Positions 1,880-63,307 of a stretch of 64,000 nt of DNA are shown here, piece by piece. Source of the DNA: Acidobacteriota bacterium (lineage in GTDB: Bacteria; Acidobacteriota; Vicinamibacteria; Marinacidobacterales; Marinacidobacteraceae); assembly GCA_022820545.1 (NCBI GenBank), contig JAJEFG010000107.1:29579-93578 (forward strand), read 5' to 3'. The notes below the pieces were generated by a model. That model was not told the DNA's origin, searched no databases, and worked only from the letters and a program-made list of their open reading frames with translations. The position numbers and the translations under genes are program-made. Positions within the stretch are counted from its first letter, which is position 1. Each line of letters starts with the position of its first letter.

Positions 1880-2155
1880 GGGCGCCTCCCGGTGAGAGGC
1901 TATCGTGTCCGGTCGGACAGAGGTCACCGGCGCGATCCGAACCGGCCGCTTCGGGGACGGGACCGTGGGACATGGCGCGCCGCCAACCGGCGGTTGGGGG
2001 GGCAAGGGGGATCAGTGGCCTTCCCCTTGCTTGCCCTCTTCCCGGACGGTGGAGTTTTCCGGGGCATGCGCGGGCGCACGGTGGCTTCGCAGCCATCCTG
2101 CGCCGAGGCGATCCTTGCCGAGACTCCGCGGAGCCTTCGTTGGAGGTGTTCGGTG

Positions 2156-4777: not shown

Positions 4778-5056
4778 GGCTTGCGGGTGGGACCGCAGCA
4801 CGGCCCACGCGTCGTTCCCGCTTGAACTGCCGGCCTAGCGGGCGTGCGGCCCGGGGCTCCGGCGCGCGATAGTCGAACCGGGCGATTCCACGGTGGCGAG
4901 GTAAAGGCCGCCCGGGACCAGGACCGCCGTCAGGGCGGCGAGAAGGAGGGCGAGGATCGTCATGGGGACATCATGGCGGCCGAGTGCGCCAAAAGGTGTC
5001 CCCCGGCCGCCACGCCGGTCCCTGGGTCGCGAGTTGGAACCGGCCGGCGGCTCGTT

Positions 5057-10678: not shown

Positions 10679-11797
10679 GTGATTGCAAGACCCATCGCCG
10701 GACTGCTCGGCGCCACTCTGCTGTTGTCGGCTCCCTCCGGGGCCGCCTCGGCCGAACCGTTCCGCCTCGGAACCTTCGAACACCGGGGCGAGGCGTTCCT
10801 CGGGATCGTTCTCCGCGACGCCTGGGCGGTGGACCTCTCCGGAGCGAACGCCTCGCTCGAGCGGCACAACCGGATGTGGGTCAGCCTCCCCATGCCGGAG
10901 GACATGAAGGAACTCGCCGGGCGCTGGCATCTCGGCATGCGCGACCGGGTCCACGCCATCGTGGACCAGGTGGTCCCGCTGCTCGACCGCTCCGCGGACG
11001 AACGTCCGGTGTGGATCCACGAGCTCGAGGGGCTCCACGTCTTCCCGCCGGTACGCCCGGGGATCATCCTGGCCACCGCCCTCAACTACCCGGCGCACGG
11101 GGTGGAGATGACCACCGGCGCGCCGGCGGCCATGTCGGACGCCTCGGCGCTCGACGACCAGCAGGTCTCGATGGACCACTTCTGGGAGCGGGAGCCGGGC
11201 GACCGCCGCCAGAACCCGTACCTCTTCATGAAGCCCGGGAGCATCGCCATCGGCCACGGCGAGCCGATCCTGATGAAGCCCGAGCGGGAGATGGTGGACT
11301 GGGAGTGCGAACTCGCGGTGGTGATCGGCCGGCCCGCGAGCGACGTCGAGGCGGAGGACGCCGGCGCCCACGTCTTCGGCTACACGATGATGAACGACGT
11401 CGGCGACCGGGAGGGCCGGGGGGACGACCGCTACGGGTCGGACTGGCTGGTGTGGAAGTCCACCGAGACCTTTGCCCCGCTCGGCCCCTTCATCACCCCG
11501 GCGGAGTTCGTGGCCGACCCGCACGACCTGGACATCCGTTTCACCCTGTCGGGCGAGATCATGCAGGACGCCAACACCGGCATCATGGAGCACAAGATCC
11601 CCGAACTCATCCAGTTCGCCTCCCACAACCTGATCCTGCGGCCGGGCGACGTGATCGCCACCGGAACCCCGGACGGCGTGGGCTACGCCCGCATCCCGCC
11701 CATCTTCATGAAACCCGGCGACACCGCCGCCTGCTGGGCCGAGGGGATCGGAACGCTCGTGAACCCGGTGCGCGCGTGGGCGGACGCCATTCGCTGA
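10679..11797 (+). CDS. Fumarylacetoacetate hydrolase (FAH) family protein with N-terminal Sec signal peptide
   Basis: GTG start. MIARPIAGLLGATLLLSAPSGAASA is a signal peptide. FAH motifs are present: VIATGTPDGVG, and the C-terminal 220 aa are typical of HpaG/MhpD-like hydratases. Confidence 0.75.
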   Translation: MIARPIAGLLGATLLLSAPSGAASAEPFRLGTFEHRGEAFLGIVLRDAWAVDLSGANASLERHNRMWVSLPMPEDMKELAGRWHLGMRDRVHAIVDQVVPLLDRSADERPVWIHELEGLHVFPPVRPGIILATALNYPAHGVEMTTGAPAAMSDASALDDQQVSMDHFWEREPGDRRQNPYLFMKPGSIAIGHGEPILMKPEREMVDWECELAVVIGRPASDVEAEDAGAHVFGYTMMNDVGDREGRGDDRYGSDWLVWKSTETFAPLGPFITPAEFVADPHDLDIRFTLSGEIMQDANTGIMEHKIPELIQFASHNLILRPGDVIATGTPDGVGYARIPPIFMKPGDTAACWAEGIGTLVNPVRAWADAIR

Positions 11798-11813
11798 CCC
11801 AGGCAGAGCGCCC

Positions 11814-12947
11814 GTGATCCAGGACCCCTTCGGCGTCTTCCTGGCGCTCGCCGGGGCGGTCTTCCTGGCGGTCTGGCTCGAGGGGCGCTACCGCTTCTTC
11901 CGCGCCATGAGCGCGGGCCTCATGTGCCTCGTGTTCGGGATGATCCTGTCGAACTCCGGGCTCCTGCCCGGGGACGCGGAGGCCTACTACCAGCTCGGCA
12001 ACATCTGGGTGAACGCCGCGATCGTGCTGGTGCTCCTCAATGTGGACCTTCGCACCCTCCTGGCCGCGGGGAAGCCCATGCTGGGGGCGTTCGGCATCGG
12101 CGCCGCCGGCACCATGCTGGGGACGGCGGTCGCCACGTTCCTGCTCGCCGGCGCCATCGGCCCCGAGACCTGGAAGCTCACCGGGCAGTTCACCGGGACC
12201 TACATCGGCGGCGGGGCGAACTTCTACGCGCTCGCCAGCGCCTTCGGGACCGATCCGAGCATCATGTCCGGGGCGGTCGCGGCCGACGTGATCGTCACCG
12301 CCTGCTGGCTCGCGACCTGCCTCGTCATCCCGGCGCTCCTCTACGGCGGGAAGGGGCTCGACCCGGTCCGGAAGGGCGATGCCCCGATGACGCTCGAGCA
12401 GCGGCTCAAGGAGAGCGGCGAGAGCCTGCGGATGATGGACTTCTTCGGGCTCTCCGCGATCACGCTCGGGGCGATGGTGGCGGCGCAGTTCCTGGGGGCC
12501 GCGGTCCCGGCGGTCCCGGCGGTGCTCTGGCTGACCAGCATCGCGCTCGTGCTCGGCCACACGCCGCCGGTCCGCAAGCTCCGGGGCGCCCCGGTCCTCG
12601 GCAACTCGCTGCTCTACCTGTTCCTCGCCGGGAACGGCGCCCAGTCGCTGGTCTCGGAGATGCTGGCCTACGGGCCGTCGCTGTTCTTCTACGCGCTGAT
12701 CACGGTGGGGATCCACGGGCTCGTGATCTTCGGCATCGGCCGGCTGCTCCGGTTCGATGCGGGGACGCTGGTGGTGGCGTCGCAGGCCAACATCGGCGGC
12801 GCCGCCTCGGCGGTGGCCATCGCCACCGCGCGCGGCTACGGGGACAAGCTGCTGCCGGGGATCGCGGTGGCGCTCGGCGGCTACGCGTTCGGGAACTACC
12901 TCGGGTTCGGGATGGGGACCCTGGCGCGGACGCTGCTCGGGGGATGA
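11814..12947 (+). CDS. DUF819-family polytopic membrane protein, paralog 1
   Basis: GTG start, (M)IQDPFGVFLALAGAVFLAVWLE. 377 aa, hydrophobic throughout. Confidence 0.65.
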   Translation: MIQDPFGVFLALAGAVFLAVWLEGRYRFFRAMSAGLMCLVFGMILSNSGLLPGDAEAYYQLGNIWVNAAIVLVLLNVDLRTLLAAGKPMLGAFGIGAAGTMLGTAVATFLLAGAIGPETWKLTGQFTGTYIGGGANFYALASAFGTDPSIMSGAVAADVIVTACWLATCLVIPALLYGGKGLDPVRKGDAPMTLEQRLKESGESLRMMDFFGLSAITLGAMVAAQFLGAAVPAVPAVLWLTSIALVLGHTPPVRKLRGAPVLGNSLLYLFLAGNGAQSLVSEMLAYGPSLFFYALITVGIHGLVIFGIGRLLRFDAGTLVVASQANIGGAASAVAIATARGYGDKLLPGIAVALGGYAFGNYLGFGMGTLARTLLGG

Positions 12948-12960
12948 GAAAGGGCTCTCA

Positions 12961-14094
12961 TTGATCCAGGACCCCTTCGGGATCTTCCTGGCGCTCGCCG
13001 CGTCGGTGTTCCTCGCCGTCTGGCTGGAGCGCAACTACCGCTTCTTCCGGTCGCTGAGCGCGGGGCTGCTGTGCCTCGTGTTCGGAATGGTGCTCTCGAA
13101 TACCGGGATCCTGGTAGGCGAGGCGGAGAGTTACGAGCAGATCTCGAACATCTGGATCAACGCCGCGATCGTGCTCGTGCTCCTGAACGTGGACCTGCGG
13201 GCGGTCCGGAAAGCCGGGAAGGCGATGCTCACCGCGTTCGGGCTCGGGGCGGTCGGAACCATGCTGGGGACCTTCCTCGCGACGGTCCTGCTGGCCGATG
13301 CGCTGGGTCCGGAGGCGTGGAAGCTCACCGGCCAGTTCACCGGGACCTACATCGGGGGCAGCGCCAACTTCTACGCCCTCGCCGCGGCCTTCGACACGGA
13401 TCCGAACCTCATGTCGGGGGCGCTCGCCGCCGACGTGATCGTGACCAGCATCTGGCTCGCCGCCTGTATCGCGATTCCGGCGCTGCTGCGGGGAGGGAGA
13501 GATCTCGATCCGCCCGGCCCGCGCGACGGGCCCCTGACGCTCGAACAGCGGCTCAACGAGAGCGGCGAGAGCGTGCGGATGCTCGATTTCTTCGGGCTGG
13601 TGGCGATCACGCTCGGAACCATGGTCGCGTCGCGCCTGATCGGGGCGGCGTGGCCGGTCATCCCGTCGGTTCTCTGGCTGACGACGATCACGCTCGTCCT
13701 CGGCCACCTCGGCCCGGTGCGGAAGCTCCGGGGGGCGCCGGTGCTCGGGAACTCGCTCCTCTACCTGTTCCTCGCCGCGAACGGGGCCCGGTCCCTGGTC
13801 TCCGAGATGTTCGCCGCCGGAGCGGTGCTGTTCTGGTTCGCGGCCCTCATCGTCGCCGTTCACGGACTCGTGATCTTCGGGGTGGGACGGCTGCTCCGGA
13901 TCGAGGCCGGGACCCTCTCGGTGGCGTCCCAGGCGAACATCGGCGGCGCCGCCTCGGAGGTGGCGATCGCCTCCGCCCGCGGCTATGCGGTCCAGATGCT
14001 CCCGGGCATCGCGGTGGCGCTCGCCGGCTACGCGGTCGGGAACTACTTCGGGTTCGGGATGGGGGTGCTCGCGCGGTCGCTGCTCGGGGGGTGA
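12961..14094 (+). CDS. DUF819-family polytopic membrane protein, paralog 2
   Basis: TTG start, in frame within ORF 12757..14094, with (M)IQDPFGIFLALAASVFLAVWLE. About 70% identical to paralog 1 over the full length. GAAAGGG lies 7 nt upstream. Confidence 0.65.
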   Translation: MIQDPFGIFLALAASVFLAVWLERNYRFFRSLSAGLLCLVFGMVLSNTGILVGEAESYEQISNIWINAAIVLVLLNVDLRAVRKAGKAMLTAFGLGAVGTMLGTFLATVLLADALGPEAWKLTGQFTGTYIGGSANFYALAAAFDTDPNLMSGALAADVIVTSIWLAACIAIPALLRGGRDLDPPGPRDGPLTLEQRLNESGESVRMLDFFGLVAITLGTMVASRLIGAAWPVIPSVLWLTTITLVLGHLGPVRKLRGAPVLGNSLLYLFLAANGARSLVSEMFAAGAVLFWFAALIVAVHGLVIFGVGRLLRIEAGTLSVASQANIGGAASEVAIASARGYAVQMLPGIAVALAGYAVGNYFGFGMGVLARSLLGG

Positions 14095-14562: not shown

Positions 14563-15246
14563 TCAACGCCGGGGCCGCCGGCCCACGGCAACCACCATCG
14601 GGCCTTCGGTCCACGCCAGTTCCGCCTCGAAACCGGCGGCGCCCATCGCAGCGGCTTCCATCTCCTGCGGGAAATAGGTGTCCTCTTCCTGCCATTCGGC
14701 GAAGTGCCGGTAGGCGCGCTCCTCCGGAATGCCGCACGACATCAGGTGGGCGGCCCAGGCACGCCACACGGGCTCCCGGGCGCTGGGCTCCGCCGGCATC
14801 GTCGCGTCGGCGTTCACGAAGACGCCGCCCGGACGGAGACAGTCGTGGATCCGGGCGAAGAGCCGCCGCTTTTCGCCCATCGTCGGGACGTGGTGGAGCG
14901 CGAGCGAAGCGGCGACCGCGTCGGCCTCCGGGAGGGGATCGTCGAAGGACGCCTCGCGGAAGCGCGTCCGGCGCCCGTACCCGTCGAGGCGTTCCCGCGC
15001 CACCGCGAGCATGTCGGGGTCCACGTCGATCAACTCGACCGTCGCGCCCGGCGCCGCACGCAGGATGGCTTCGGCAAGGGCGCCGGTGCCGCCGCCGAGG
15101 TCCAGCACGTGTTCCGGCGCCACCCGCGCGATCTCGGCGGCGGCCGCTTCGAGCATCGCCTCGTAGCCGGGGATGAAGCGCCGGATCGCCTCGTCGTAGG
15201 CCTCGACCTCGACGCGCAGGTGACGTCTGACGGAGTGACGGGACAT
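14563..15246 (-). CDS. Class I SAM-dependent methyltransferase
   Basis: This is the C-terminal 227 aa of ORF 14563..15606(-), starting MSRHSVRRHL. The SAM motif is VLDLGGGTGALAEAI, with an acidic loop ELIDVD. Confidence 0.7.
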   Translation of the reverse strand: MSRHSVRRHLRVEVEAYDEAIRRFIPGYEAMLEAAAAEIARVAPEHVLDLGGGTGALAEAILRAAPGATVELIDVDPDMLAVARERLDGYGRRTRFREASFDDPLPEADAVAASLALHHVPTMGEKRRLFARIHDCLRPGGVFVNADATMPAEPSAREPVWRAWAAHLMSCGIPEERAYRHFAEWQEEDTYFPQEMEAAAMGAAGFEAELAWTEGPMVVAVGRRPRR

Positions 15247-15448
15247 GCCGGGCGATTCTCGCAGCAGCGTCCGCGAGGAGGCCGTACCCGCGGCGATCAG
15301 CGGCAATCGGTTTCGCGGCCCTCCCGGGCGGCGGCGCCGGTCTGAAAGCCCCCACCGGGAGACACCGTCATGTTCGGTGCACCAGCACGCCCCGCCGCTC
15401 ATGAAGGTGCGCGGCGGGACGCTGAGCCTTCGGTGGCAGGGACGGTTT

Positions 15449-15474
15449 GGAACGCCGGCTTCAGCCGGCACAGC
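15449..15474 (+). repeat. REP-like element family B copy (GGAACGCCGGCTTCAGCCGGCACAGC), left arm of inverted pair
   Basis: It contains the GCCGGC-TTCA-GCCGGC hairpin and is followed by the palindrome GCCCGCC-GCA-GGCGGGC (15472-15488). Confidence 0.7.
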
Positions 15475-15578
15475 CCGCCGCAGGCGGGCGGCGAGACGGA
15501 CCTCATTCGCCGGGATGGCTCGACCGTGTGCGCCAATGCACCCGGGTAGCGACGGAACCGCCCGCGGCCCTGCGGGCC

Positions 15579-15604
15579 GCTGTGCCGGCTGAAGCCGGCG
15601 TTCC
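15579..15604 (-). repeat. REP-like element family B copy, right arm (exact reverse complement of 15449-15474)
   Basis: GCTGTGCCGGCTGAAGCCGGCGTTCC is a perfect 26-bp inverted copy. It is preceded by the hairpin GCCCGC-GGCCCT-GCGGGC. Confidence 0.7.
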
Positions 15605-15648
15605 AAGCCAGCGGCGTCCTCACGGCTGTTGGCCCGCCGGCGCTTCCC

Positions 15649-21530
<5,882 letters not shown>

Positions 21531-29944: not shown

Positions 29945-30196
29945 ATGAGTATGAAGCGGCTGCAAGTGGTCATGTCAGACGAAGAACTCGACGGTTTTCA
30001 CCAGACTGCTCGCGCCGAGGGACTGCGCCTTTCCGAATGGGTTCGCCGCACGCTCCGCGCTGCCCGTCAGGCGGCGTCGGCCGAACGGATTGAGCGAAAG
30101 CTGCAGGCGATCGAAGCTGCGGCGAACTGGAAAGCCCCGACTGCGGACCCGGAACAGATGCTTGCCGAGATCGAGGCCGGACGCCTTGCCGATTGA
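29945..30196 (+). CDS. vapB: VapB-type RHH antitoxin
   Basis: 83 aa. The RHH segment is KRLQVVMSDEELDGFHQTARAEGLRLSEWVRRTLRAA. It overlaps vapC (TTGA). Confidence 0.7.
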   Translation: MSMKRLQVVMSDEELDGFHQTARAEGLRLSEWVRRTLRAARQAASAERIERKLQAIEAAANWKAPTADPEQMLAEIEAGRLAD

Positions 30197-30597
30197 CCTT
30201 CGTTGACTCGAACGTCCCGATGTACCTCGTCGGGAAAGAACATCCCCGCCGGGAAGATGCCGTGCGCGCCCTGGCGGAGCTTGTGCGGCAGACCGAACCG
30301 CTGGTGAGCAGCGCCGAGGTTGTACAGGAAATCCTGCACCGGTATCACGCGATCGGTCGCCGTGAATTCGTCCAACCGGCGATCCGGTTGCTGTTGGAAC
30401 TGACCGAGGGGGACATCTTTCCGGCGACCCTGAACGACACGCTGCGAGCTGGCGAACTGCTCGTCTCGTTCCCGGAAATCTCCTCCCGCGACGCGGTGCA
30501 TCTCGCCGTCATGGAGAGTCGCGGCGTTTCCCGGATCCTCTCGTTCGATCGCGGTTTTGACGTCGCTACCGGGATCGAGCGGATTCCCGACTTCTGA
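30193..30597 (+). CDS. vapC: VapC PIN-domain toxin
   Basis: TTG start. FVDSNVPMY carries the first Asp of the PIN domain; EV, HLAVME and LSFDRGFD carry the remaining acidic residues. Confidence 0.8.
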   Translation: MTFVDSNVPMYLVGKEHPRREDAVRALAELVRQTEPLVSSAEVVQEILHRYHAIGRREFVQPAIRLLLELTEGDIFPATLNDTLRAGELLVSFPEISSRDAVHLAVMESRGVSRILSFDRGFDVATGIERIPDF

Positions 30598-30612: not shown

Positions 30613-31584
30613 CTAACCGCTGTCCCGGACGGCCTCGGTGACCAGCGGAATCACCTCCAGCGCGTCACCGACGATCCCCACGTCGGCCGCGCCGAAGATG
30701 GGGGCGTCGGGGTCCTTGTTGATGGCCACCACGAACCGGGAGCCGCGCATGCCCACGAGGTGCTGGATGGCGCCGGAGATGGCGCAGGCGACGTAGAGCT
30801 TCGGCGACACGGTGGCGCCGCTCGAGCCGATCTGGAGCTCGTGAGGAAGCCAGCCGGCGTCGGTCACCGCCCGGGAAGCCCCGACCACGCCGCCGAGCGC
30901 CGCCGCCAGTTCGTGCACGATGTCGAGGTTCTCGGGACCGCCGAGGCCGCGGCCGGCCGCCACCACCACGTCCGCCGCCGTCAGGTCCACCCCGCCGGCG
31001 CCCGCGTCCCGGACCTCGACGAGGCGCGAACGCAGATCGCCGGGGCCCACGGGGGAGGGGAGGATGCGCACGGAGAGCGCCGGCCCCGGTTCCCGGGCCG
31101 GGAAGGCCCCGCGCTCCACCGTCGCCACCGCGGGGAGGCCGGGCGCCTCCACCTCCTGGACGAACTTCCCGAGAAAGGCGGAACGCCTCGCGACGAGTCC
31201 GTCCCCGCGCCAGGAAAGCGCCGACACGGCGGTGGCGGCGGCGGTTCCCAGCCGCGCCGCGACCAGCGGCGCGACGTCCCAACCGACCGGGTCGTGGGGC
31301 AAGAGGACGCACTCGGCGCCGCTCGCTTCCCGGGCGTGCAGCACCGCGGCGGCGGTCCCGTCCGCGGTCGGGGACGCGTGGGCCGGCCCTTCCACCAGCA
31401 GGAGTTCCCCCGCCGGCAGGACCTCGCGCAGCCCCTCGGCCTCGCTGGCGTCACCGACCGGGAGGACGGCGCTCACCCGGTCCGGCCCGCCGGCGAGCCG
31501 GGAAGCGGCCTCGATCAGTTCGTAGCTGGCGTCAGTGACGCCGCTTTCGCTCCGCTCGGCGAGGGTGAGGACCCGGCGGCTCAT
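30613..31584 (-). CDS. etfA: Electron transfer flavoprotein alpha subunit
   Basis: This is the C-terminal 323 aa of ORF 30613..32145(-), starting [11 protein letters not shown]. The FAD-binding C-terminus is [28 protein letters not shown]. The ATGA overlaps etfB. Confidence 0.85.
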
Positions 31585-32360
31585 GCCGTGTCTCCGGGAA
31601 AGGAGACTCCGGCGCCGGCCCGCATCCGGGGAACGAGCGCCGCCGCCGCCTCCTGGGGGGACCCCGGGAGGATCTCGGCGCTGGCGCCGCGTTCGGGCCT
31701 GCCGAGCGTCAGCCGCCGAAGCCCGCCGCCGTCCGCGGGAGCGGCGAGTTCGACGCGCTCCACCGGCTTGCGCCGCGAGGCCATGATGCCGCGGAGACTC
31801 GCGTAGCGCGGGGTGTTGATGCCGGTCTGGACGGCCACCACCGCCGGCAGGCGGAGTTCGACGACCGCGATCCGGCCGCCTTCGAGTTCGCGGTGCGCCT
31901 CGAGGCGCCCGTCCCGGAACTGCAGTCCGGTGGCGGCGGAGGCGAACGAGAAGCCGAGCAGGCCCGCCACCAGCCCTCCCACCTGTCCGTGGCCGCTGTC
32001 CTCGGCAAGGAGGCCGGCAAACACCACCCCGGCGTCGAGTCCGGAAACGGCGCCCGCGAGCGCCCGCGCCACGAAGAAGGGATCGGCGAGGTGCGCGCGA
32101 TCGGTCACCAGATGCACTCCGCGGTCCACTCCCATCGCGAGGCAACTCCGGAGCACCTGGCCGGCGTCCGCCGGGCCGGCGGTCACCGCCACGGTCTCCG
32201 CCGCGTGTCCGGCCTCTTTCAGCGCCAGGGCCGCCTCGACGGCGTAGCGGTCGTAGTCGTTGATGCCGTAACCGAGGCTGGATTCGTCGATCCAGTCACC
32301 CGCCGGGCGAAAGGCGGAGTTGCGGTCGGGAACCTGCTTGACGAGAGCGACGGCGTTCAT
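31581..32360 (-). CDS. etfB: Electron transfer flavoprotein beta subunit
   Basis: 259 aa; MNAVALVKQVPD is the EtfB N-terminus. Confidence 0.85.
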   Translation of the reverse strand: MNAVALVKQVPDRNSAFRPAGDWIDESSLGYGINDYDRYAVEAALALKEAGHAAETVAVTAGPADAGQVLRSCLAMGVDRGVHLVTDRAHLADPFFVARALAGAVSGLDAGVVFAGLLAEDSGHGQVGGLVAGLLGFSFASAATGLQFRDGRLEAHRELEGGRIAVVELRLPAVVAVQTGINTPRYASLRGIMASRRKPVERVELAAPADGGGLRRLTLGRPERGASAEILPGSPQEAAAALVPRMRAGAGVSFPGDTA

Positions 32361-32374
32361 GGAATTCGGGCCGT

Positions 32375-32995
32375 ATGATCGCCGCGCTAGCGTCCGGGGG
32401 CAAGGTGAGCGGCAAAGTCCCGAGAGGGTCCTACGTGGTGGCGGGGATCCTCGCGCTCGCGACCGGGCTCGGCCTGCTCGCGGTCGCCGGGAAGCCGACC
32501 GCCATCCGGCGGCCGGACCCGGTGGACCGTCCGGTCCTGCTGATCCCGGACTTCGACAACCGCACCGGCCGCGGCGAGTTCACCCCCCTGGCGCGACAAC
32601 TCACCGACGCGGTGCGGGCGCGTCTCGCGCGGGATCCGGGCGGCATCTTCCAACTGTCGCCGCGGCGGCTCCGCCCGGCTTTCGGTCCCTCGGAACGCGA
32701 GGAAGGGCTGGTGGGGATAGCCGCCCGCCTCGGTGCGGACTACGTCCTCGCCGGCAGCCTCGAATCGGGCCCGGGGGAACCGCTCGGCCCGGGTTCGTCC
32801 TGGACGCCTCCGCGCGAGGCCCGCGGCGGCGGCGAGGAGATCCGCCTCGACGTCCTCCTGGTGCGGGACTCGGACCCGCCCCACGTGTTCGCCGAACGCT
32901 TCCTGCTGGGGTCGCCGAACCCGGAAGAGGCCGAGGACCGGCAACTCGCGGACTGGGTCGGCGAGCGGATCGCACTCTCCCTCAGCCGCCCGTGA
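32375..32995 (+). CDS. Membrane-anchored protein with TolB-N-terminal-like/LpoB-like domain
   Basis: A TM anchor SYVVAGILALATGLGLLAVAG is followed by VLLIPDFDNRTGRGEFTPLARQLTD and LGADYVLAGSLE. Confidence 0.4.
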   Translation: MIAALASGGKVSGKVPRGSYVVAGILALATGLGLLAVAGKPTAIRRPDPVDRPVLLIPDFDNRTGRGEFTPLARQLTDAVRARLARDPGGIFQLSPRRLRPAFGPSEREEGLVGIAARLGADYVLAGSLESGPGEPLGPGSSWTPPREARGGGEEIRLDVLLVRDSDPPHVFAERFLLGSPNPEEAEDRQLADWVGERIALSLSRP

Positions 32996-33161
32996 CACGC
33001 CCGTCCGTCCGGCGCGTGCACCCAGCGATAGCCCGACCCTCCGGGACGTCGCCGAGATCAGGTCAGGTGGATCGCGAGTGGCACGCCGGTGAGCGCATCA
33101 CGTCGCGGTAAGGCACCCGTCCTGCGGGTCGGAAGGGGGGAGCGTCGTCTCGCGTTTCGCC

Positions 33162-33214
33162 TCGCTGCGCTCGGCGATGCCGGCCGGATTGCCGGCGCTC
33201 CGAGCCATAGCGCC
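33162..33214 (+). repeat. REP-like element family A copy 2
   Basis: GCGTTTCGCCTCGCTGCGCTCGGCGATGCCGGCCGGATTGCCGGCGCTCCGAGC. It lies in the convergent intergenic spacer. Confidence 0.7.
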
Positions 33215-33240
33215 ACGATTCCCGCCGGAGGCGGCGGTCC

Positions 33241-34500
33241 CTACCGCAGTCGGACCCGGTCCCAGGCGTCCCAGGCCGAGGTGTCCGAGAGGATGATCTC
33301 GTCGCCCTCGGCGAGCCCGGCCAGGACCTCGATGCGGTTCACCGAGCCCCGGCCGAGCTCCACCGGCACGCGCTCCGCGGTCTCCCCGTCGGGGGCGATC
33401 CGGAAGAGGCCGACCGTGCTCCCCGGCTGGCCGTAGGCCGGCCGGCCGACGTGGAGCGCGTCCGGGATCCGGTCCAGCTCGATCGTGCCGTCCACCGAGA
33501 GGTCCGGACGGGCGCCCCGGGGAAGCTCGCCGGCGATCGCGATGTCCACGGCCACCGTCCCCTCGCGCACCGCGGGGTCCACCCGGGAGACGACGCCCTC
33601 CACGACCCCGTTCCGCGTGTCCACCAGCGCCGGCTGGCCCGGTTCGACGTCGCGCGCCTGCGTCTCGGCGATCCGCAGCACCGCCTTGAGTTCCCGGGGG
33701 TCCGCCACCCGCGCGAGGTTCGCTCCCGGGCTCACCTCCTGGCCGACCTCGACCGGCACCTCCAGGAGCGTTCCGGCGCGTCCGGCCCGCACGGTGAGGG
33801 CGGCGAGCTGCCGCCGGCGGAGTTCCAGGACCGCCCGGTAGCGCGCGACGGTCGCTTCCTTGGAGGCGACCTGCGCCTCGCTCGAGTCGGCGAGGATGGC
33901 GAGGCGCTCTTTCTCGAGCGCGTGGCGGGTCTCCAGTTCCTCGGCGCTCACCTGGCTCCGGCGGTGAATCAGTTCCCCGACCAGTCCCGCCTCGAAGAGC
34001 TTGCGGTCCGCATCCGCGCGGCGGCGCGCCTGGGCCGAGGAAGCGGCGAGCTGGCCGGCGGCGTTCTCCTGCTCCAGCAGGTCGGAACGCGTCTGGTCGA
34101 GCAGCCGCCGGAGTTCCGCCTGCTCGGCGCGGAGCTGGAGTTCGGCCTCGCGGGTCTGCTGTTCGAGTTCGGGATTCGAGAGGACGAGCAGCACGGTGTC
34201 CTCCTCCACCGGGGTTCCGGGGAGCACCCGGCGCTCCTCGACCCGGCCGCGGGTCTCGGCGGCCAGCCAGCGGATCTGTTCGGGCGGGACCTGGAGGCTG
34301 CCCGGTCCCCGGACCTGTCGGATCAGCTCGCCCCGTTCGACGACCCCGGTCCAGACGACCGAGCGGTCCACTTCGGGCGCGCCGGGAGCGATCCGGCCGA
34401 GCAGGATCACCGCGATCAGCAGCGCGGCGGCGCCGCCCCCAGCCAGCATCAGTCGCCGGACGCGGCGTTTCCGCTGCCGGTCGGCGATCTGGAAGTCCAC
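33241..34500 (-). CDS. HlyD-family membrane fusion protein / periplasmic adaptor subunit
   Basis: GTG start with GGAGG 4 nt upstream. A basic N-terminal tail leads into a TM helix (MLAGGGAAALLIAVILLG), then a coiled-coil, then a beta-barrel (TVAVDIAIAGELP). Confidence 0.7.
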   Translation of the reverse strand: MDFQIADRQRKRRVRRLMLAGGGAAALLIAVILLGRIAPGAPEVDRSVVWTGVVERGELIRQVRGPGSLQVPPEQIRWLAAETRGRVEERRVLPGTPVEEDTVLLVLSNPELEQQTREAELQLRAEQAELRRLLDQTRSDLLEQENAAGQLAASSAQARRRADADRKLFEAGLVGELIHRRSQVSAEELETRHALEKERLAILADSSEAQVASKEATVARYRAVLELRRRQLAALTVRAGRAGTLLEVPVEVGQEVSPGANLARVADPRELKAVLRIAETQARDVEPGQPALVDTRNGVVEGVVSRVDPAVREGTVAVDIAIAGELPRGARPDLSVDGTIELDRIPDALHVGRPAYGQPGSTVGLFRIAPDGETAERVPVELGRGSVNRIEVLAGLAEGDEIILSDTSAWDAWDRVRLR

Positions 34501-34520
34501 GCTGCCTCCGCGCTCGTTCC

Positions 34521-36365
34521 CTAGTCGAAGAAGAGTCCCGGCAGCGCCAGGGTCAGGTAAGGGATGTAGGTCACGAGCAGTACCGCGCCCGCCCGGATCA
34601 GCAGGAACGGCACCGAGGCGCGATAGACCTCCCCGAGCGGCCGCTTGAACCGGTAGGAGGCGAGGAAGAGGTTCATCCCCACCGGCGGCGTCAGGTAGCC
34701 GAGCTCCAGGTTCGTGAGGAAGATGACCCCGAGGTGCAGGGGGTCGATGCCGAAGGCGAGTCCGAGCGGCGCGACCAGGGGCACCACGACCACGATGGCC
34801 GAGTAGATGTCCATGAGGCAGCCGACGATCAGCAGGAAGATGTTCAGCAGGAGCAGGAAGAAGAGCGGCGAGGCCACGAACGACTGCACCCAGTCGATCG
34901 CCATCCCCGGGATGTCGGCGAAGATCAGGTAGTTCGTGAGCCCGAGCGCGGCGCCCAGGATGAGCAGCACGCCGCCGATCAGGGTCACCGCGTTGGCCCC
35001 GGTGCGGACCAGATCGGAGAACGTCTTCCCCTCGCGGTGGATCACGAACTCGATGAACAGGGCGTAGAGGACGGTGATGGCGGCGGCTTCCACGAGCGTC
35101 GCGATCCCGCCGAGCATCACGCCGATGACCACGAAGGGGATGGAGGCCTCCCACTTCGCGGTCCAGAGCGCCCGCGCCGCCTCCCCGATCCGGAAGGACG
35201 AGGTAGTCCCCTTGAAGCGTTGGCCCGCGAAACGCCGGGTCACCAGGATCGTGAACCCGGCCACCAGCACGATCTGGAGGGCGGAGGGAATCAGTCCGGC
35301 CACGAAGAGCCGCGGAATGTCCACCTCGGCGACGATCGCGTAGAGGATGACGGCGACCGAGGGGGGAATGAGGAGGCCGAGCGAGCCCGCCGCGGTCAGG
35401 AGTCCGGTCGCGAACTTGGGGCGGTGGCCGTCGGCGAGCAGCAGGGGGAACATCAGGCCGCCCATCGCCAGGATGGTGACGCCGCTGCCCCCGGTGAAAC
35501 AGGTGAAGAACGCGGACATCACGATCGCCACCACCGCCACCCCGCCCGGCATCCAGCCGAAGACGCCGCGGAAGAGCACCACGAGGCGCTTGGGCGCGCC
35601 GCCCTCCGCGAGGATGTAGCCCGCGAGGGTGAAGAGCGGAATCGTCGGCAGCATGGGCTTCGTGACCATGCTGTAGGCCTCGGCGGGAATCGCCGCGACC
35701 GGGTCCCAGTTGCTCCACAGCAGCACCGCGGCAGCGCCGCCGAGCGCCACGAAGATCGGCGCCCCGAACGCCGCGGCGATCAGGATGAGGGCGAGCAGCG
35801 GCCATTCGATGCCGTATCCGGTGAGGTCCCACCCGGTGAGCCCCTCGTGGAGCAGCAGGGGAACCGCGAGGCCGAGGACCGCGGTCCAGCGGCCCCAGGC
35901 GGTCGGGACCCGCCGCCAGAGCCGCCAGGCGATCAGCAGGAAGCCGACCGGCATGACGGCCACGGCGGCCCAGACCGGGACGCCGAGCGCCAGTTCCCGG
36001 CCGCCCTCCCACTCGGCCCGGGTGAGCACCACGCTGGCGTAGGAGAGCGTGACCGACACCACGACCCCGACCGCGCCCGACAGCGACAGGAGGCGCGGCC
36101 TCCAGACCTCGGACACCATGCTCGGGCCGGCGCTCAGCGAGAGCAGCTCGCCCCGGCGGGACGCCACCGCCGCCCCCAGGAAGGCGACCCAGAGCGTCAG
36201 GTGCTGCACCCACATGAACGAGCCCGGGATGCCCGTCGGATAGACCGGACGGATGAGCGCCTCGGTGATCGGGATCGCCGCCATGAGGACGAGCGCGCCG
36301 ACCGAGATCGCGTCCTCGAAGACCGCGAGGCGGCTCCGGGGCGGACCGGCGGTTCCTTCCGGCAT
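34521..36365 (-). CDS. TRAP transporter fused permease (DctQ-DctM fusion)
   Basis: ORF 34521..36407(-). The internal Met start (MPEGTAG) has GGAGG 8 nt upstream. A 4-TM DctQ-like N-terminus precedes a DctM-like 12-TM region. Confidence 0.8.
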   Translation of the reverse strand: MPEGTAGPPRSRLAVFEDAISVGALVLMAAIPITEALIRPVYPTGIPGSFMWVQHLTLWVAFLGAAVASRRGELLSLSAGPSMVSEVWRPRLLSLSGAVGVVVSVTLSYASVVLTRAEWEGGRELALGVPVWAAVAVMPVGFLLIAWRLWRRVPTAWGRWTAVLGLAVPLLLHEGLTGWDLTGYGIEWPLLALILIAAAFGAPIFVALGGAAAVLLWSNWDPVAAIPAEAYSMVTKPMLPTIPLFTLAGYILAEGGAPKRLVVLFRGVFGWMPGGVAVVAIVMSAFFTCFTGGSGVTILAMGGLMFPLLLADGHRPKFATGLLTAAGSLGLLIPPSVAVILYAIVAEVDIPRLFVAGLIPSALQIVLVAGFTILVTRRFAGQRFKGTTSSFRIGEAARALWTAKWEASIPFVVIGVMLGGIATLVEAAAITVLYALFIEFVIHREGKTFSDLVRTGANAVTLIGGVLLILGAALGLTNYLIFADIPGMAIDWVQSFVASPLFFLLLLNIFLLIVGCLMDIYSAIVVVVPLVAPLGLAFGIDPLHLGVIFLTNLELGYLTPPVGMNLFLASYRFKRPLGEVYRASVPFLLIRAGAVLLVTYIPYLTLALPGLFFD

Positions 36366-36448
36366 GCCGGCGGCCTCCGGGAGGGCCCCTGCGGCGTCCG
36401 GACTCATGGCTCCCCGGGGCGGACTCCGCGGGTCAGCCCGCGGCGGGG

Positions 36449-37474
36449 CTACTCATTGGCGGCCCGGTACTCGTCGCGCAGCCGGATCATGCGGTCGAAC
36501 ACCGGAGGGGAGACGAGCTGCTCCCGGACCAGCGGGAAGAGCTTCTCCGCGGTCTCCATCCAGGCGCTTTCGAACGCGGAGGAGGCCTCGATCACCTCGA
36601 GACCCCGCGACTTCATCGCCGCGAGCGACTTCCGCTCCTGCTCGCGGTTGGTCTCGCGGAACGATTCCGCCGCCTCGTTGCTCTTGCGGAGCACCACCTC
36701 CTGCTGGGACGCGTCGAGCCGTTCCCAACCCTGCTCGTGCACGATGATGGCGCCCTGCAGCGGCGCCCAGGGGAGGTCGTTCATGAACTTGGCCGAGCGG
36801 TAGATCTGGGACCCCTCCGCGAGCACGATCGGCAGCGGGACGGCCTCGATGAGTCCGGTCTGGAAGCCGCTCACCAGCTCGACCGAACTGATCTGGACCG
36901 GGTCGAAGCCCGACCAGCGCAGGAGATCGAGGACCGTCTGGTCGTTCGAGGCGCCCGCCAGCTTCAGCGCCTGCAGGTCTTCGAGGGTGTTGACGGGGTC
37001 GCTCGCGAAGAAGTGGAGCCAGCCCACGTCGGCCCAGGCGATGACCTGGAACCCGTGCCCGCTCAGCGTTTCGGCGATCGCCGGGTTCATGGCCTCCCGG
37101 ACGTGGTCCCATTCGGGGTAGTCGCGGAACACCATCGGGATGGAGAGCGTCCAGGCGCTCGGGTCCAGTTCGGCGAGTCCCACGTTGGAGACCGCGGCCA
37201 TCTGGACCTGGCCGAGCCGCATCTTGCTGATCATCGCGGTTTCGTCGCCGGCGGCGCCCCCGGCGATGATGCGGATCCGCACCTCGCCGCCGGTCTCGCG
37301 GCCGATCTCGGCGGCCATCTTGTCGAGGATCAGGTGGTAGGCGGACCCCCGGGGCGCGACGGTCGCGAGGCGCAGGTTGACCCGCGCCTCGGCGGCGGCC
37401 GCGGGCAGGACGAGGGCGAGAGCCACGAGCGCGACGCTCCGGCCAGCCGGAAGGAACTTTCTGACGTTCGGCAT
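36449..37474 (-). CDS. dctP: TRAP transporter substrate-binding protein (DctP family)
   Basis: This is the C-terminal 341 aa of ORF 36449..37939(-), starting MPNVRKFLPAGRSVALVALALVLPAAAAEA (signal peptide). DctP fold. Confidence 0.8.
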   Translation of the reverse strand: MPNVRKFLPAGRSVALVALALVLPAAAAEARVNLRLATVAPRGSAYHLILDKMAAEIGRETGGEVRIRIIAGGAAGDETAMISKMRLGQVQMAAVSNVGLAELDPSAWTLSIPMVFRDYPEWDHVREAMNPAIAETLSGHGFQVIAWADVGWLHFFASDPVNTLEDLQALKLAGASNDQTVLDLLRWSGFDPVQISSVELVSGFQTGLIEAVPLPIVLAEGSQIYRSAKFMNDLPWAPLQGAIIVHEQGWERLDASQQEVVLRKSNEAAESFRETNREQERKSLAAMKSRGLEVIEASSAFESAWMETAEKLFPLVREQLVSPPVFDRMIRLRDEYRAANE

Positions 37475-37494
37475 AAGGGAATTCTCTGCTGTTT

Positions 37495-38436
37495 CTATGG
37501 GTTCTGCAGGTCGTCGAGGAAATAGTCGTCGACGTTGCTGAGCAGCCAGGCGGCCCGTTCCTGGGCCACCTGGTTCAGGAGACGCGCTCCCGGTTCGCTG
37601 TCGATGTCGAAATCGAGCGTCTGCCGCAACAGGGTCTCGAATTCCTCCCGGTTGCCGCTCGCGACCGATCCCGTCTCGGCCCAGGTGGACCAGAGCACCG
37701 GAGCCCGCGCCGGGCCGATCCCGAGCGCGTGCTCGTAGTACTCGCGTCCCTGGTCGATGGAGCCCCCGATCCGGGACACCTCGTAGATGCTCAGGTAGTC
37801 GTAGACCACCCCGTCGTCCACCGTGTCGTCGAGTTCGCGGGACCGGTTCAGCAGGGCGCCCATCAGGGAGAGGTCCGCGGTGGCCTCGGGATTGTCCGTA
37901 TCCATCGCGATCCAGGCGCCGAGCGCGGTGCCTGTCCACAGCGCCAGGGCGGCGTCCTCGACCTCCAGCTCGGCGGCGGCCGCCTCCGGGTCGCGGCGGA
38001 GGCGGGCTTCGATGCCGGGATGGTTCACTTCGAGACCCCGCATGCCGTAGCCCGTGGCGCGGCGGTAGAGCCGGGCGGCGCGCCGCCGCACGGCCTGCTT
38101 CTCCTCGAACTGGGTGAAGTCGAGATCGAAGAGGTCCGGCTCGACGAAGCCGTAGGCGAAGAGCAGGAAGCCCTTGGTCGCGCTCAACAGCATTTCCCGG
38201 TGCTCGGGGCTCGTCTCCAGCATCGTCTCCATGAGCCAGAGGTTGTTGGCGAGCGGCGCCTTGACGAGGTCGAGGTCATCGTCGGAACGGAGGACGGCCT
38301 CCCCCTCGGCGAGCAGTCCCGAAATCGAGTTCACCGCCATGTTGGCGACGAGACTGCACCCCGGCAACCACGTCAGCGCGGCGACAAGGCCGGCAGCCGG
38401 ACCGAGCCGCATCCTCCCCGCTCCCACGGTCCTCAT
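37495..38436 (-). CDS. TatT-like TPR/helical lipoprotein (T component of TPR-protein-associated TRAP transporter)
   Basis: The lipobox is LTWLPGCS. The 313-aa protein is predicted helical. It sits 20 nt upstream of dctP, giving the T-P-QM gene order seen in TPATs. Confidence 0.45.
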   Translation of the reverse strand: MRTVGAGRMRLGPAAGLVAALTWLPGCSLVANMAVNSISGLLAEGEAVLRSDDDLDLVKAPLANNLWLMETMLETSPEHREMLLSATKGFLLFAYGFVEPDLFDLDFTQFEEKQAVRRRAARLYRRATGYGMRGLEVNHPGIEARLRRDPEAAAAELEVEDAALALWTGTALGAWIAMDTDNPEATADLSLMGALLNRSRELDDTVDDGVVYDYLSIYEVSRIGGSIDQGREYYEHALGIGPARAPVLWSTWAETGSVASGNREEFETLLRQTLDFDIDSEPGARLLNQVAQERAAWLLSNVDDYFLDDLQNP

Positions 38437-63111: not shown

Positions 63112-63307
63112 GGCGAACTCCTTTCCAGGTGGTTGGTCGCGCTCGGCCACATTTCCGCAATGCCTGTGCCACAACCGGCAGGGGCCGCCCGTGGTCCGCG
63201 GCCGGGCCGCCGATCGGCCGGCGGCGGAACCCGATCGGTCCACCCGCGTTAAATTCGTTTCCCAGTGCCCCGGTGACACCAGGACCTGACCAAGGAGGCC
63301 ACCGTTC

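Follow-up and report, generated by a model that had tools for sequence, protein, structure and literature searches.

Among the closest described counterparts of the locus analysed here is the TPAT-type TRAP transporter of Treponema pallidum, in which the lipoprotein TatT (Tp0956), the P component TatP (Tp0957) and the fused permease TatQ-M (Tp0958) are encoded in the order T, P, QM. TatT proteins bind long-chain fatty acids, and for Tp0956/Tp0957 and Es_TatT it is known that TatT forms a trimer which binds the P component as well as a hydrophobic ligand (PMC11713862). In the sterol transporter BstABC of Methylococcus capsulatus, the TatT-superfamily protein BstC partners the RND protein BstA (PMC11713862), which shows that members of the TatT family can team up with machinery of the efflux type instead of DctPQM. 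Next in gene numbering to the T. pallidum TPAT genes tp0956-0958, the region tp0959-tp0972 encodes a MacB (Tp0962-0964), an adaptor (Tp0965) and four TolC-like outer-membrane factors (PMC8407342).

Here we analyse a window of 64 kb (the whole stretch of DNA under study) from an acidobacterium of the marine or sponge type (70% GC), in which a TRAP operon of this kind is followed by a gene for a periplasmic adaptor. A preliminary description had proposed that the adaptor might be coupled to the importer or, as a fallback, be an unrelated gene in the operon. Comparison with related genomes gives better support to the second half of this interpretation. With a probability of roughly 60%, the locus combines a TPAT importer with a captured MacA-like adaptor, the last survivor of a neighbouring ABC efflux cassette. 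As the pump genes and the promoter of this cassette were deleted, the odd pairing of TRAP genes and adaptor is most likely an accident of genome evolution rather than a novel transporter type.

A TPAT-type operon with a fourth gene

The operon and its surroundings comprise the following features.

37495..38436, minus strand: TatT-like lipoprotein (ATG at 38436, stop at 37495, 313 aa, lipobox LPGC, PF16811)
36449..37474, minus strand: DctP-family TRAP substrate-binding protein (ATG at 37474, 341 aa, Sec signal peptide, PF03480)
34521..36407, minus strand: fused DctQ-DctM TRAP permease (ATG at 36407, 628 aa, PF04290 and PF06808)
34505..34509, minus strand: GGAGG, ribosome-binding site of the adaptor gene, within the dctQM-adaptor spacer 34501-34520 (read from the sequence)
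33241..34500, minus strand: MacA-like periplasmic adaptor, a membrane fusion protein (GTG at 34500, 419 aa; PF13437, PF16576, TIGR01730)
32996..33240, no strand: spacer from the adaptor stop to the convergent gene, the site of the MacB-type ATPase and ADOP permease in the sister group
32375..32995, plus strand: 'c206', conserved convergent gene, 206 aa, N-terminal hydrophobic stretch; synteny anchor
30613..32360, minus strand: electron-transfer flavoprotein (ETF) beta (31581-32360) and ETF alpha (30613-31584) genes, synteny anchor beyond the former cassette site

The ETF assignment is based on precomputed Pfam families on the orthologous genes in the related loci L001, L003 and L004. The open reading frames of the four operon genes are confirmed at the coordinates given before, all on the minus strand, with tatT contiguous and co-oriented with dctP and dctQM in the order T-P-QM. 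Also borne out are the 20-nt spacer between dctQM and the adaptor gene and the GTG start of the latter with GGAGG (34509-34505) 4 nt upstream, a motif that is kept in the same position among the closest relatives. For the remaining gaps, 20 nt between tatT and dctP stands, while the 83 nt reported between dctP and dctQM applies only if DctQM starts at an alternative second ATG (36365; 614 aa). Measured to the first ATG (36407) this gap is 41 nt, which is a minor correction. We infer that the adaptor gene is co-transcribed with the TRAP genes.

An HMM search with the lipoprotein, as proposed in the preliminary description, gave a strong match to PF16811 covering profile positions 2-263 of 263 (E = 1.3e-59). 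A profile of 11 TatT homologues matches T. pallidum Tp0956 (3u64, E = 1.9e-41) and the palmitate-binding Es_TatT (8g52, E = 1.1e-10). Cys27 and Ser28 of the LPGC lipobox region are invariant in 17 homologues, and the T component is a predicted lipoprotein which by sequence belongs to the TatT family (PF16811; Tp0956-like), as in the T. pallidum system. DctP matches PF03480 (E = 1.5e-40) and NF037995 (TRAP_S1) with 253 bits versus a cut-off of 50, while DctQM carries a DctQ domain (PF04290, residues 42-167) and a DctM domain (PF06808, residues 206-618) in a single ORF and scores 316 bits with TIGR00786 (cut-off 268). The DctP, DctQ and DctM domains of a TRAP transporter are thus all present. 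The T-P-QM order recurs in 55 of 59 related loci found in a TatT scan (L006-L064). Given the PF16811 match, the Tp0956 profile match and this gene order, the earlier TPAT call was correct, and the first gene set is a predicted TPAT-type TRAP importer. Two features set it apart from the T. pallidum system: its DctP carries a Sec signal peptide and lacks a lipobox, and a fourth cistron, the adaptor gene, is added after dctQM. Compared with BstABC, TatT resides here in a canonical T-P-QM operon and no RND gene was found.

By analogy, the importer would be of the fatty-acid type with a presumed role in the uptake of hydrophobic carboxylates. Based on homology to Tp0956/Tp0957/Tp0958 and Es_TatT, TatT would capture a hydrophobic carboxylate (a long-chain fatty acid is the probable ligand) and hand it to periplasmic DctP, which would deliver it to the fused DctQM permease driven by an ion gradient.

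An adaptor of the MacA type with no pump gene next to it

The product of the fourth gene matches the HlyD families PF13437 (E = 1.7e-14) and PF16576 (E = 8.8e-14), and with 95.2 bits lies barely above the TIGR01730 cut-off of 94.9. In its AlphaFold2 monomer model (pLDDT 89) a TM helix (2-35) and a hairpin (H110-170 and H176-233) are seen together with lipoyl, barrel and membrane-proximal domains, which supports what had been read from the letters, namely a basic tail and TM helix, a long hairpin and a barrel. Foldseek ranks E. coli MacA chains from MacAB-TolC highest (9qgy_G, 1.3e-22; 5nik_D, 8.3e-21), and the best profile matches are likewise to MacA rather than to RND or MFS adaptors. The protein thus has the HlyD/RND_mfp signature and shares with E. 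coli MacA (PDB 5nik, 9qgy) the N-terminal TM anchor and the hairpin, lipoyl, beta-barrel and membrane-proximal domains. Differences from MacA are an identity of only ~20% and hairpin helices of ~60 residues. Close to the tip of the hairpin, Leu168, Gly175 and Ser182 (L168, G175, S182) are invariant, which is compatible with, though no proof of, docking to a TolC-like channel.

Unlike in MacAB-TolC, no adjacent pump gene was found for this adaptor, in line with what had been claimed. Queries with the MacB-type ATPase and the ADOP permease returned noise only (E of at least 3) in tblastn over the 64 kb. Pfam scans detected no ABC, FtsX, RND, MFS or outer-membrane-factor gene in 33 ORFs across the window, a set that includes the four operon genes and is a selection rather than an exhaustive gene inventory (the ORFs for ETF, fumarase, PIN and aldehyde oxidase and a few stretches such as 20.7-22.3 kb and 60.2-61.5 kb lie outside it). 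The partner pump was thus not found within the 64-kb window, whereas the orthologues in L003, L005, L030 and L033 do have adjacent pump genes. As no ADOP gene was found in the window, the connection to the ADOP family of Acidobacteria (TIGR03434) is made via these orthologous loci only.

The adaptor locus in related genomes

In a sister group of marine Acidobacteriota, orthologues of the adaptor gene head a cassette of their own, comprising the adaptor, a MacB-type ATPase and a duplicated ADOP permease, which either has the same TatT-TRAP operon on one side and the same ETF genes on the other or occurs without any TRAP genes. L003, L030 and L033 represent the first arrangement, with TatT-DctP-DctQM, a spacer of 199-200 nt, adaptor, ATPase, ADOP, c206 and ETF. 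In L005 no TRAP genes are present, and after adaptor, ATPase and ADOP come another ATPase, a sigma-54 activator and a histidine kinase. The ATPase is MacB/LolD/DarD-like, and the permease, of the FtsX/MacB_PCD type, is assigned to the ADOP family (TIGR03434, 881 bits versus a cut-off of 622). As with E. coli MacA, these adaptors hence share their locus with genes for a MacB-type ATPase and a permease of the FtsX/MacB_PCD type, but the partner is a duplicated ADOP permease with a separate ATPase instead of a fused MacB. L003, L005, L030, L031, L032 and L037 share, some 40 nt ahead of the adaptor start, the motif TGGCAC-N5-TTGC, which has one mismatch in L033 and is degenerate and indel-bearing in L049; an upstream palindrome, TGGGAC..GTCCCA, is likewise conserved in the sister group. 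The cassette therefore has its own predicted sigma-54 promoter.

The clade of the window is organized differently. In 25 of 25 species-level genomes the adaptor gene lies directly behind dctQM with a gap of -1 to 43 nt, the shortest junction being an overlapping TGATG, so that within this clade the conserved co-occurrence of adaptor and TRAP genes, which had been put forward as a test, holds. ATPase, permease and the 200-nt promoter spacer are missing in all 25, and no sigma-54 motif is found upstream of the adaptor in these short gaps. The window itself retains only the adaptor of the cassette, behind a 20-nt spacer devoid of the motif. The spacers between adaptor and c206 range from 8 to 2919 nt at loci with an adjacent c206 match and contain no detectable ATPase or permease remnant. 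The gene c206 occupies the same position in both clades and has dN/dS values of 0.10-0.24, with no match in Pfam or NCBIfam, and ETFb was located by tblastn in 20 MFP-only loci and 13 sister-group loci (L018 duplicates L001). The orphan adaptors form a single clade, sister to the pump-linked adaptors, and their architecture recurs in many independent assemblies, including complete chromosomes.

All orphan adaptor ORFs (25/25) are intact with lengths of 418-420 aa. Their dN/dS is 0.10-0.15 at dS 0.22-0.65, compared to 0.10-0.24 for TatT, DctP and DctQM and 0.14-0.17 for the pump-linked adaptors. As this corresponds to normal purifying selection equal to that on the TRAP genes, the adaptor gene is, by this measure, functional. 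Barrel and membrane-proximal motifs are equally conserved in the orphan and pump-linked clades. Normalised entropies in the orphan versus the pump-linked clade are 1.39 versus 0.57 for the linker (residues 36-54) and 2.07 versus 1.58 for the TM segment.

Outside these two groups, none of 19 TatT-TRAP loci lacking any cassette gene carries a detectable adaptor orthologue behind dctQM (tblastn), and Pfam scans downstream of seven of them found unrelated genes. The adaptor is not an accessory of TRAP transporters in general. Together with the sigma-54-driven cassette headed by its orthologues and the single ancestral deletion, this speaks against an architecture in which the adaptor is coupled to the TRAP importer. 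In addition, a recent recombination tract common with L006 covers tatT, dctP and most of dctQM and ends before the adaptor.

Origin and partner of the adaptor

We trace the loss of the ATPase, the permease and the promoter spacer of roughly 200 nt to one deletion, in an ancestor common to the clade of the window. Comparison of the loci shows that the adaptor gene, having lost these elements, became the predicted fourth cistron of the TRAP operon. Its transcription along with tatT, dctP and dctQM would then be a by-product of the deletion or, at most, co-regulation.

The same observations could be read as the recruitment of the adaptor as a fifth TatT-TRAP component, e.g. a scaffold that spans the periplasm and connects TatT, DctP and DctQM with an outer-membrane channel in the uptake of hydrophobic substrates. 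The invariable position behind dctQM, the loss of the adaptor's own promoter, cognate ATPase and cognate permease, the purifying selection shared with the TRAP genes and the lack of a detected close ADOP orthologue on orphan-clade chromosomes are all consistent with this, as is the pairing of BstC with the RND protein BstA, in which a TatT-family protein partners a non-TRAP efflux type (PMC11713862). We nevertheless consider such a recruitment quite unlikely, as the orphan state arose only once in the phylogeny and the 25 genomes therefore count as one observation, the adaptor is absent from every other sampled TatT-TRAP lineage, and it shares its barrel and membrane-proximal motifs with the pump-linked sister clade. 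The tract shared with L006, which stops before the adaptor, indicates that the TRAP genes are exchangeable without it, and to our knowledge DctQM has almost no periplasmic surface that could seat an adaptor.

Somewhat easier to envisage, though still unlikely, is a functional adaptor that now serves a different inner-membrane partner elsewhere (RND, MFS or another family) or acts without a pump. This would agree with its low dN/dS, the loss of the cognate pump from the locus and the relatively more variable linker and TM segment of the orphan clade, and in T. pallidum a single adaptor has been proposed to serve an ABC as well as an RND pump (PMC8407342). Against it stand the structural and sequence matches, which are best with MacA and not with RND or MFS adaptors, the membrane-proximal domain, still highly conserved and similar to that of the pump-linked clade, and the presence in the orphan clade of an ADOP permease without its own adaptor (L035). 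Erosion of the cassette is visible in the sister group, with ATPase-only loci, a 22-aa ATPase remnant in L043 and disrupted adaptors in L031 and L032, and might suggest that the orphan adaptor is itself a decaying, non-functional remnant, or that missing pump genes reflect an assembly artefact. Both are contradicted by the intact ORFs, the dN/dS values, which do not exceed those of neighbouring genes, the conserved ribosome-binding site and the repetition of the architecture in independent assemblies and complete chromosomes, making this explanation extremely improbable.

The reading as a captured adaptor has its own counterpoints. Retention in all 25 genomes and short spacers would also be expected from a functional link to the TRAP system, and the protein-protein contacts it invokes are all ones that we infer. 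A search for ADOP orthologues of at least 52% identity, to which more diverged ones are invisible, gave none on a contig equal in length to any orphan-clade chromosome. Furthermore, the TPAT genes of T. pallidum adjoin the MacB/adaptor/OMF operon, which by analogy hints that the neighbourhood may not be pure accident. TatT-TRAP genes and a MacB-type pump with adaptor are chromosomal neighbours there as in our sister-group loci; unlike in the window, tp0959-tp0972 keeps all pump and OMF genes, its adaptor lies outside the TRAP operon, and the phylum is a different one. At the Spirochaetales TPAT locus L064 no neighbour of the MacB, adaptor or OMF type was seen.

If captured, the adaptor probably works with a MacB/ADOP-type pump whose genes lie at another place in the genome. 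It would most likely still hexamerise, and the hexamer would bridge this ABC pump to a TolC-like outer-membrane channel. Genes for ADOP permeases typically have no ATPase gene beside them, so that partnerships in trans are the norm in the phylum Acidobacteria. They look normal here as well, judging from the partial cassettes: L037 and L049 have only adaptor and ATPase, L041, L046 and L051 only the ATPase, all with intact ORFs, and in L035, a member of the orphan clade, an ADOP permease lies 2.7 kb away with no adjacent ATPase or adaptor match.

The TatT-TRAP operon and its neighbourhood

The four genes of the preliminary description are present as described, all on the minus strand, with an LPGC lipobox in the lipoprotein and GGAGG ahead of the adaptor GTG. 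Together with the genes 3' of the adaptor they comprise the following features:

38436-37495, minus strand: tatT, lipobox LPGC, PF16811 (E = 1.3e-59)
37474-36449, minus strand: dctP, PF03480 and NF037995
36407-34521, minus strand: fused dctQM, PF04290 (DctQ) and PF06808, TIGR00786 (DctM) within one ORF
34509-34505, minus strand: ribosome-binding site GGAGG of the adaptor
34500 (GTG) to 33241, minus strand: adaptor, PF13437 and PF16576; TIGR01730 barely passed (95.2 bits vs 94.9)
32375-32995, plus strand: c206, 206 aa, N-terminal hydrophobic stretch, no Pfam/NCBIfam match
30613-32360, minus strand: ETF beta and alpha genes

The intergenic gaps along the operon are 20, 41 and 20 nt. The 20-nt gaps reported earlier are thereby confirmed. 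The gap given as 83 nt is 41 nt to the first dctQM ATG; a value of 83 nt is obtained only from the second ATG, at 36365. The assignment as a TatT-associated TRAP transporter (TPAT) is correct: in addition to the PF16811 match of the lipoprotein, the TatT family profile matches T. pallidum Tp0956 (3u64, E = 1.9e-41) and the palmitate-binding Es_TatT (8g52, E = 1.1e-10). The T-P-QM genes most likely encode a TPAT importer. TatT proteins bind long-chain fatty acids (PMC11713862). By homology, the TatT studied here would bind a hydrophobic carboxylate, which would be passed to DctP and then imported via DctQM. The components are new members of already known families, and about 55 Acidobacteriota TatT-TRAP operons are added here to a family discussed mainly for spirochaetes and marine microbes. 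In the literature we found no relevant account joining TatT with HlyD.

The adaptor is followed by a 245-nt spacer, the convergent c206 and the ETF beta and alpha genes. c206 is always convergent to the adaptor or its pump cassette and divergent from ETF beta in both clades described below, and it is under purifying selection (dN/dS 0.10-0.24). As its annotated start lies just 14 nt from that of ETF beta, one of these start sites is probably misannotated. The ETF genes keep their place beside the TatT-TRAP locus at 20 loci with the adaptor alone and 13 loci of the sister group; this fits weakly with a theme of fatty-acid uptake and oxidation and proves nothing.

The claim that no pump is encoded near the adaptor is borne out as far as the window was searched. 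Queries with a MacB-type ATPase and an ADOP permease (tblastn over the 64 kb) gave nothing better than E = 3, and no ABC, RND, MFS or outer-membrane-factor gene was found among 33 Pfam-scanned ORFs, which include the four of the operon and represent a part of the window's ORFs.

The adaptor is a MacA-like protein

The AlphaFold2 model of the adaptor (mean pLDDT 89) agrees with the architecture proposed from the sequence. A predicted N-terminal helix at residues 2-35 is consistent with a basic tail and a TM anchor, and two helices of about 60 residues each (110-170 and 176-233) form a coiled-coil hairpin, accompanied by lipoyl, beta-barrel and membrane-proximal domains. Among PDB structures, Foldseek ranks E. 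coli MacA within MacAB-TolC highest (9qgy_G, 1.3e-22; 5nik_D, 8.3e-21), and MacA proteins are also the best profile-to-sequence matches. By eye, no clean match to the R-x3-L-x6-S TolC-binding motif was found at the hairpin tip. Homologues are many and of near-constant length (417-420 aa, 56-96% identity); those with a named source are labelled Acidobacteriota or Vicinamibacteria.

Sorting the adaptors by tree position into orphan and pump-linked ones, we found that the barrel and membrane-proximal motifs DTRNG, GARPDLSVDGTIEL, VGRPAYGQ and LSDTSAWD are kept in both clades alike. Domain-wise, the TM segment and the linker at residues 36-54 are relatively more variable in the orphan adaptors, which is suggestive of some relative relaxation and is not decisive.

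Comparison of related loci

Gene context was examined in three ways, using the contigs of four adaptor homologues, a TatT scan of one genome per species, and tblastn of eight reference proteins on all loci (numbered L003 and so on). The scan employed an 11-sequence TatT alignment (A2), as a 17-sequence alignment (A1) was too diverse to offer a conserved stretch usable for a genome scan. It returned 59 loci, 56 from Acidobacteriota, two from Verrucomicrobia and one from Spirochaetales.

The window belongs to an orphan clade whose TatT proteins are at least 61% identical to its own and whose members are called Vicinamibacteria or Ca. Marinacidobacterium. The 25 non-redundant loci of this clade all share the order TatT-DctP-DctQM-adaptor, then a variable spacer and, where detected, c206 and ETF; tblastn found a cassette ATPase or permease in none of them. 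In the sister group (TatT 44-51% identical to that of the window, many members called Ca. Marinacidobacterales) this TRAP operon and the c206/ETF genes are again present, and between them lies a cassette made up of the adaptor, an ATPase and a 795-aa permease. The ATPase is MacB/LolD/DarD-like and the permease is a duplicated permease of the ADOP family (TIGR03434, 881 bits vs 622). Conservation of the adaptor beside the TRAP genes, a point raised by the preliminary description, therefore holds throughout the orphan clade but does not extend to 19 further TatT-TRAP loci, including those of Verrucomicrobia and Spirochaetales, where tblastn detected no cassette gene. Seven of these 19 were Pfam-scanned downstream and carry alcohol dehydrogenase, TPR and cyclophilin proteins, an MFS protein, a tRNA synthetase and others.

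Within the sister group, L003, L030 and L033 retain the whole cassette, and other loci have it in eroded form. L031 and L032 have a disrupted adaptor, L037 and L049 keep adaptor and ATPase alone, and L041 (14031-14786), L046 (13969-14724) and L051 (13926-14660) keep the ATPase alone, as intact ORFs behind dctQM with their own ribosome-binding site and without a sigma-54 motif. The ATPase is reduced to a 22-aa remnant in L043, and no cassette gene is left in L045. The cassette is thus being lost piecemeal in different lineages. In L005, a locus in which TRAP genes are absent, adaptor, ATPase and permease are followed by a second ATPase, a sigma-54 activator and a histidine kinase.

Several further features were observed at these loci. 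IS66-family transposase genes at 4176-5528 and 16890-18323 flank the TRAP and cassette region of L003, and about 4 kb (14645-18767) is inserted within or after the truncated adaptor gene of L031; both suggest mobile-element activity at the locus. In the orphan-clade locus L035, an ADOP permease (17938-20319; TIGR03434 769 bits; 32% identical to the L003 permease) sits just past the ETF genes, 2.7 kb downstream of the adaptor, and L048 and L055 also have similar paralogues close to their TRAP operons. In both verrucomicrobial loci tatT is immediately preceded by a co-oriented 730-aa ORF (L058 7666-9858; L062 1181-3373), which in L058 matches LptD (PF04453, E = 3e-14). An LptD-like outer-membrane beta-barrel gene beside a TPAT may bear on the uptake of hydrophobic ligands.

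Probable loss of the cassette promoter

In the sister group, dctQM and the adaptor are separated by 199-200 nt; spacers with insertions reach 612 and 3180 nt. Roughly 40 nt ahead of the adaptor start the spacer contains a conserved TGGCAC-N5-TTGC, the sigma-54 -24/-12 consensus, and about 110 nt further upstream a conserved TGGGAC..GTCCCA palindrome. Exact copies of the motif are located at:

L003, 9958-9972
L030, 13902-13916
L031, 13952
L032, 13806
L037, 14316
L005, 9962

L033 has a variant with one mismatch, and that of L049 is degenerate and bears an indel. Since the motif also precedes the TRAP-less cassette of L005, where a sigma-54 activator and a histidine kinase are encoded just 3', the cassette is a transcription unit of its own.

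In the orphan clade the dctQM-adaptor spacer is -1 to 43 nt, with TGATG overlaps among them, and TGGCAC-N5-TTGC is absent from it. The sole exact occurrence in the window (63157-63171) is far off and expected by chance. Given this tight spacing, transcription of the adaptor would now depend on the TRAP operon. Generic searches for sigma-70 promoters and terminators yielded about as many matches as expected by chance, both in the window operon and in L003.

History and selection

In a neighbour-joining tree all orphan adaptors form one clade, sister to the pump-linked adaptors. Nothing credible as an ATPase or permease remnant was found in the adaptor-c206 spacers of the orphan loci. The simplest account is one ancestral deletion that took the ATPase, the permease and the promoter spacer.

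The adaptor ORF is intact (418-420 aa) at every orphan locus. Its dN/dS relative to the window is 0.10-0.15 (pairs with dS 0.22-0.65), compared with 0.10-0.24 for TatT, DctP and DctQM in the same pairs and 0.14-0.17 for pump-linked adaptors. Intact ORFs and dN/dS values matching those of the TRAP genes and of pump-linked adaptors argue that the orphan adaptor is alive.

A near-identical tract links the window (~38826-35327) with L006 (9611-13110); the flanks, adaptor included, differ by ~3-10%. The tract extends over tatT, dctP and the initial 60% of dctQM with 0-7 mismatches per 250 nt, except that the bin spanning the dctP-dctQM junction has 21. Genes inside the tract have a dS of 0-0.08, those outside 0.24-0.54. 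The pattern suggests recent homologous recombination, with the tract ending within dctQM before the adaptor is reached.

Possible role of the orphan adaptor

The preliminary description saw in the adaptor beside a TRAP importer a possible new architecture. Instead, the odd pairing probably arose through loss of genes and capture of the adaptor by the operon, in one event at the base of the orphan clade. The adaptor is a functional MacA-like protein and would most probably serve a MacB/ADOP-type pump encoded elsewhere, with a TolC-like channel. Partners in trans are supported by the partial cassettes kept as intact genes (L037, L049, L041, L046, L051), by the ADOP permease of L035 with no adjoining ATPase or adaptor match, and by the family as a whole, as ADOP genes are typically unaccompanied. 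A search with the L003 permease for a relocated ADOP gene found none on orphan-clade chromosomes among the 120 matches listed (at least 52% identity), a range beyond which more diverged orthologues would lie.

Alternatively, the adaptor, having lost pump and promoter, may have been taken over as a fifth TatT-TRAP component. It could then be a periplasm-spanning scaffold or conduit from an outer-membrane channel to TatT, DctP and DctQM for the uptake of hydrophobic substrates. Its universal retention in the orphan clade, its tight coupling to dctQM and the disappearance of its cognate pump and promoter would agree with such a role. However, all orphan loci represent one evolutionary event, the adaptor is absent from every other TPAT lineage sampled, and the recombination tract common to L006 spans tatT, dctP and 60% of dctQM but stops before the adaptor, so that we regard recruitment as improbable. 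If true, recruitment would make the adaptor the first membrane fusion protein to work with a secondary importer and would amount to a new transport architecture. It would also bear on the route by which hydrophobic ligands reach TPAT systems across the periplasm. In a milder version, TatT-TRAP import and MacB-type export would be functionally paired in lipid homeostasis, a link that would account for their proximity at this locus and likewise in T. pallidum. There, by gene numbering, the TPAT genes tp0956-0958 are followed by the operon tp0959-tp0972, whose products include a MacB pump with an adaptor as well as four TolC-like proteins (PMC8407342). As the one Spirochaetales TPAT locus sampled has no MacB or adaptor neighbour, this parallel is a lead and not evidence.

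If gene loss and operon capture hold, the locus is a clean example of operon rebuilding by one deletion: a tripartite efflux cassette was stripped of its pump and sigma-54 promoter, and its adaptor, left on the neighbouring importer operon, stays under selection throughout a clade of marine and sponge-associated Acidobacteriota. This supports the view that Acidobacteria combine MacB/ADOP permeases, ATPases and adaptors from separate genomic locations, which bears on the annotation of their many 'orphan' ADOP permeases.

Other genes in the window

Three further regions of the window, all on the plus strand, were noted:

29945-30597, plus strand: a small gene pair flanked by the fumarase and ETF genes, with ORFs of 83 aa and 134 aa that share 4 nt; by eye, a putative VapB/VapC (PIN) toxin-antitoxin pair
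1118-4777, plus strand: ORF of 1219 aa as listed, erythromycin-esterase domain (PF05139, E = 8e-145) at residues 449-786
11763-14094, plus strand: two tandem DUF819 membrane-protein genes (PF05684, E ~1e-60 each), scanned as stop-to-stop frames, which overlap
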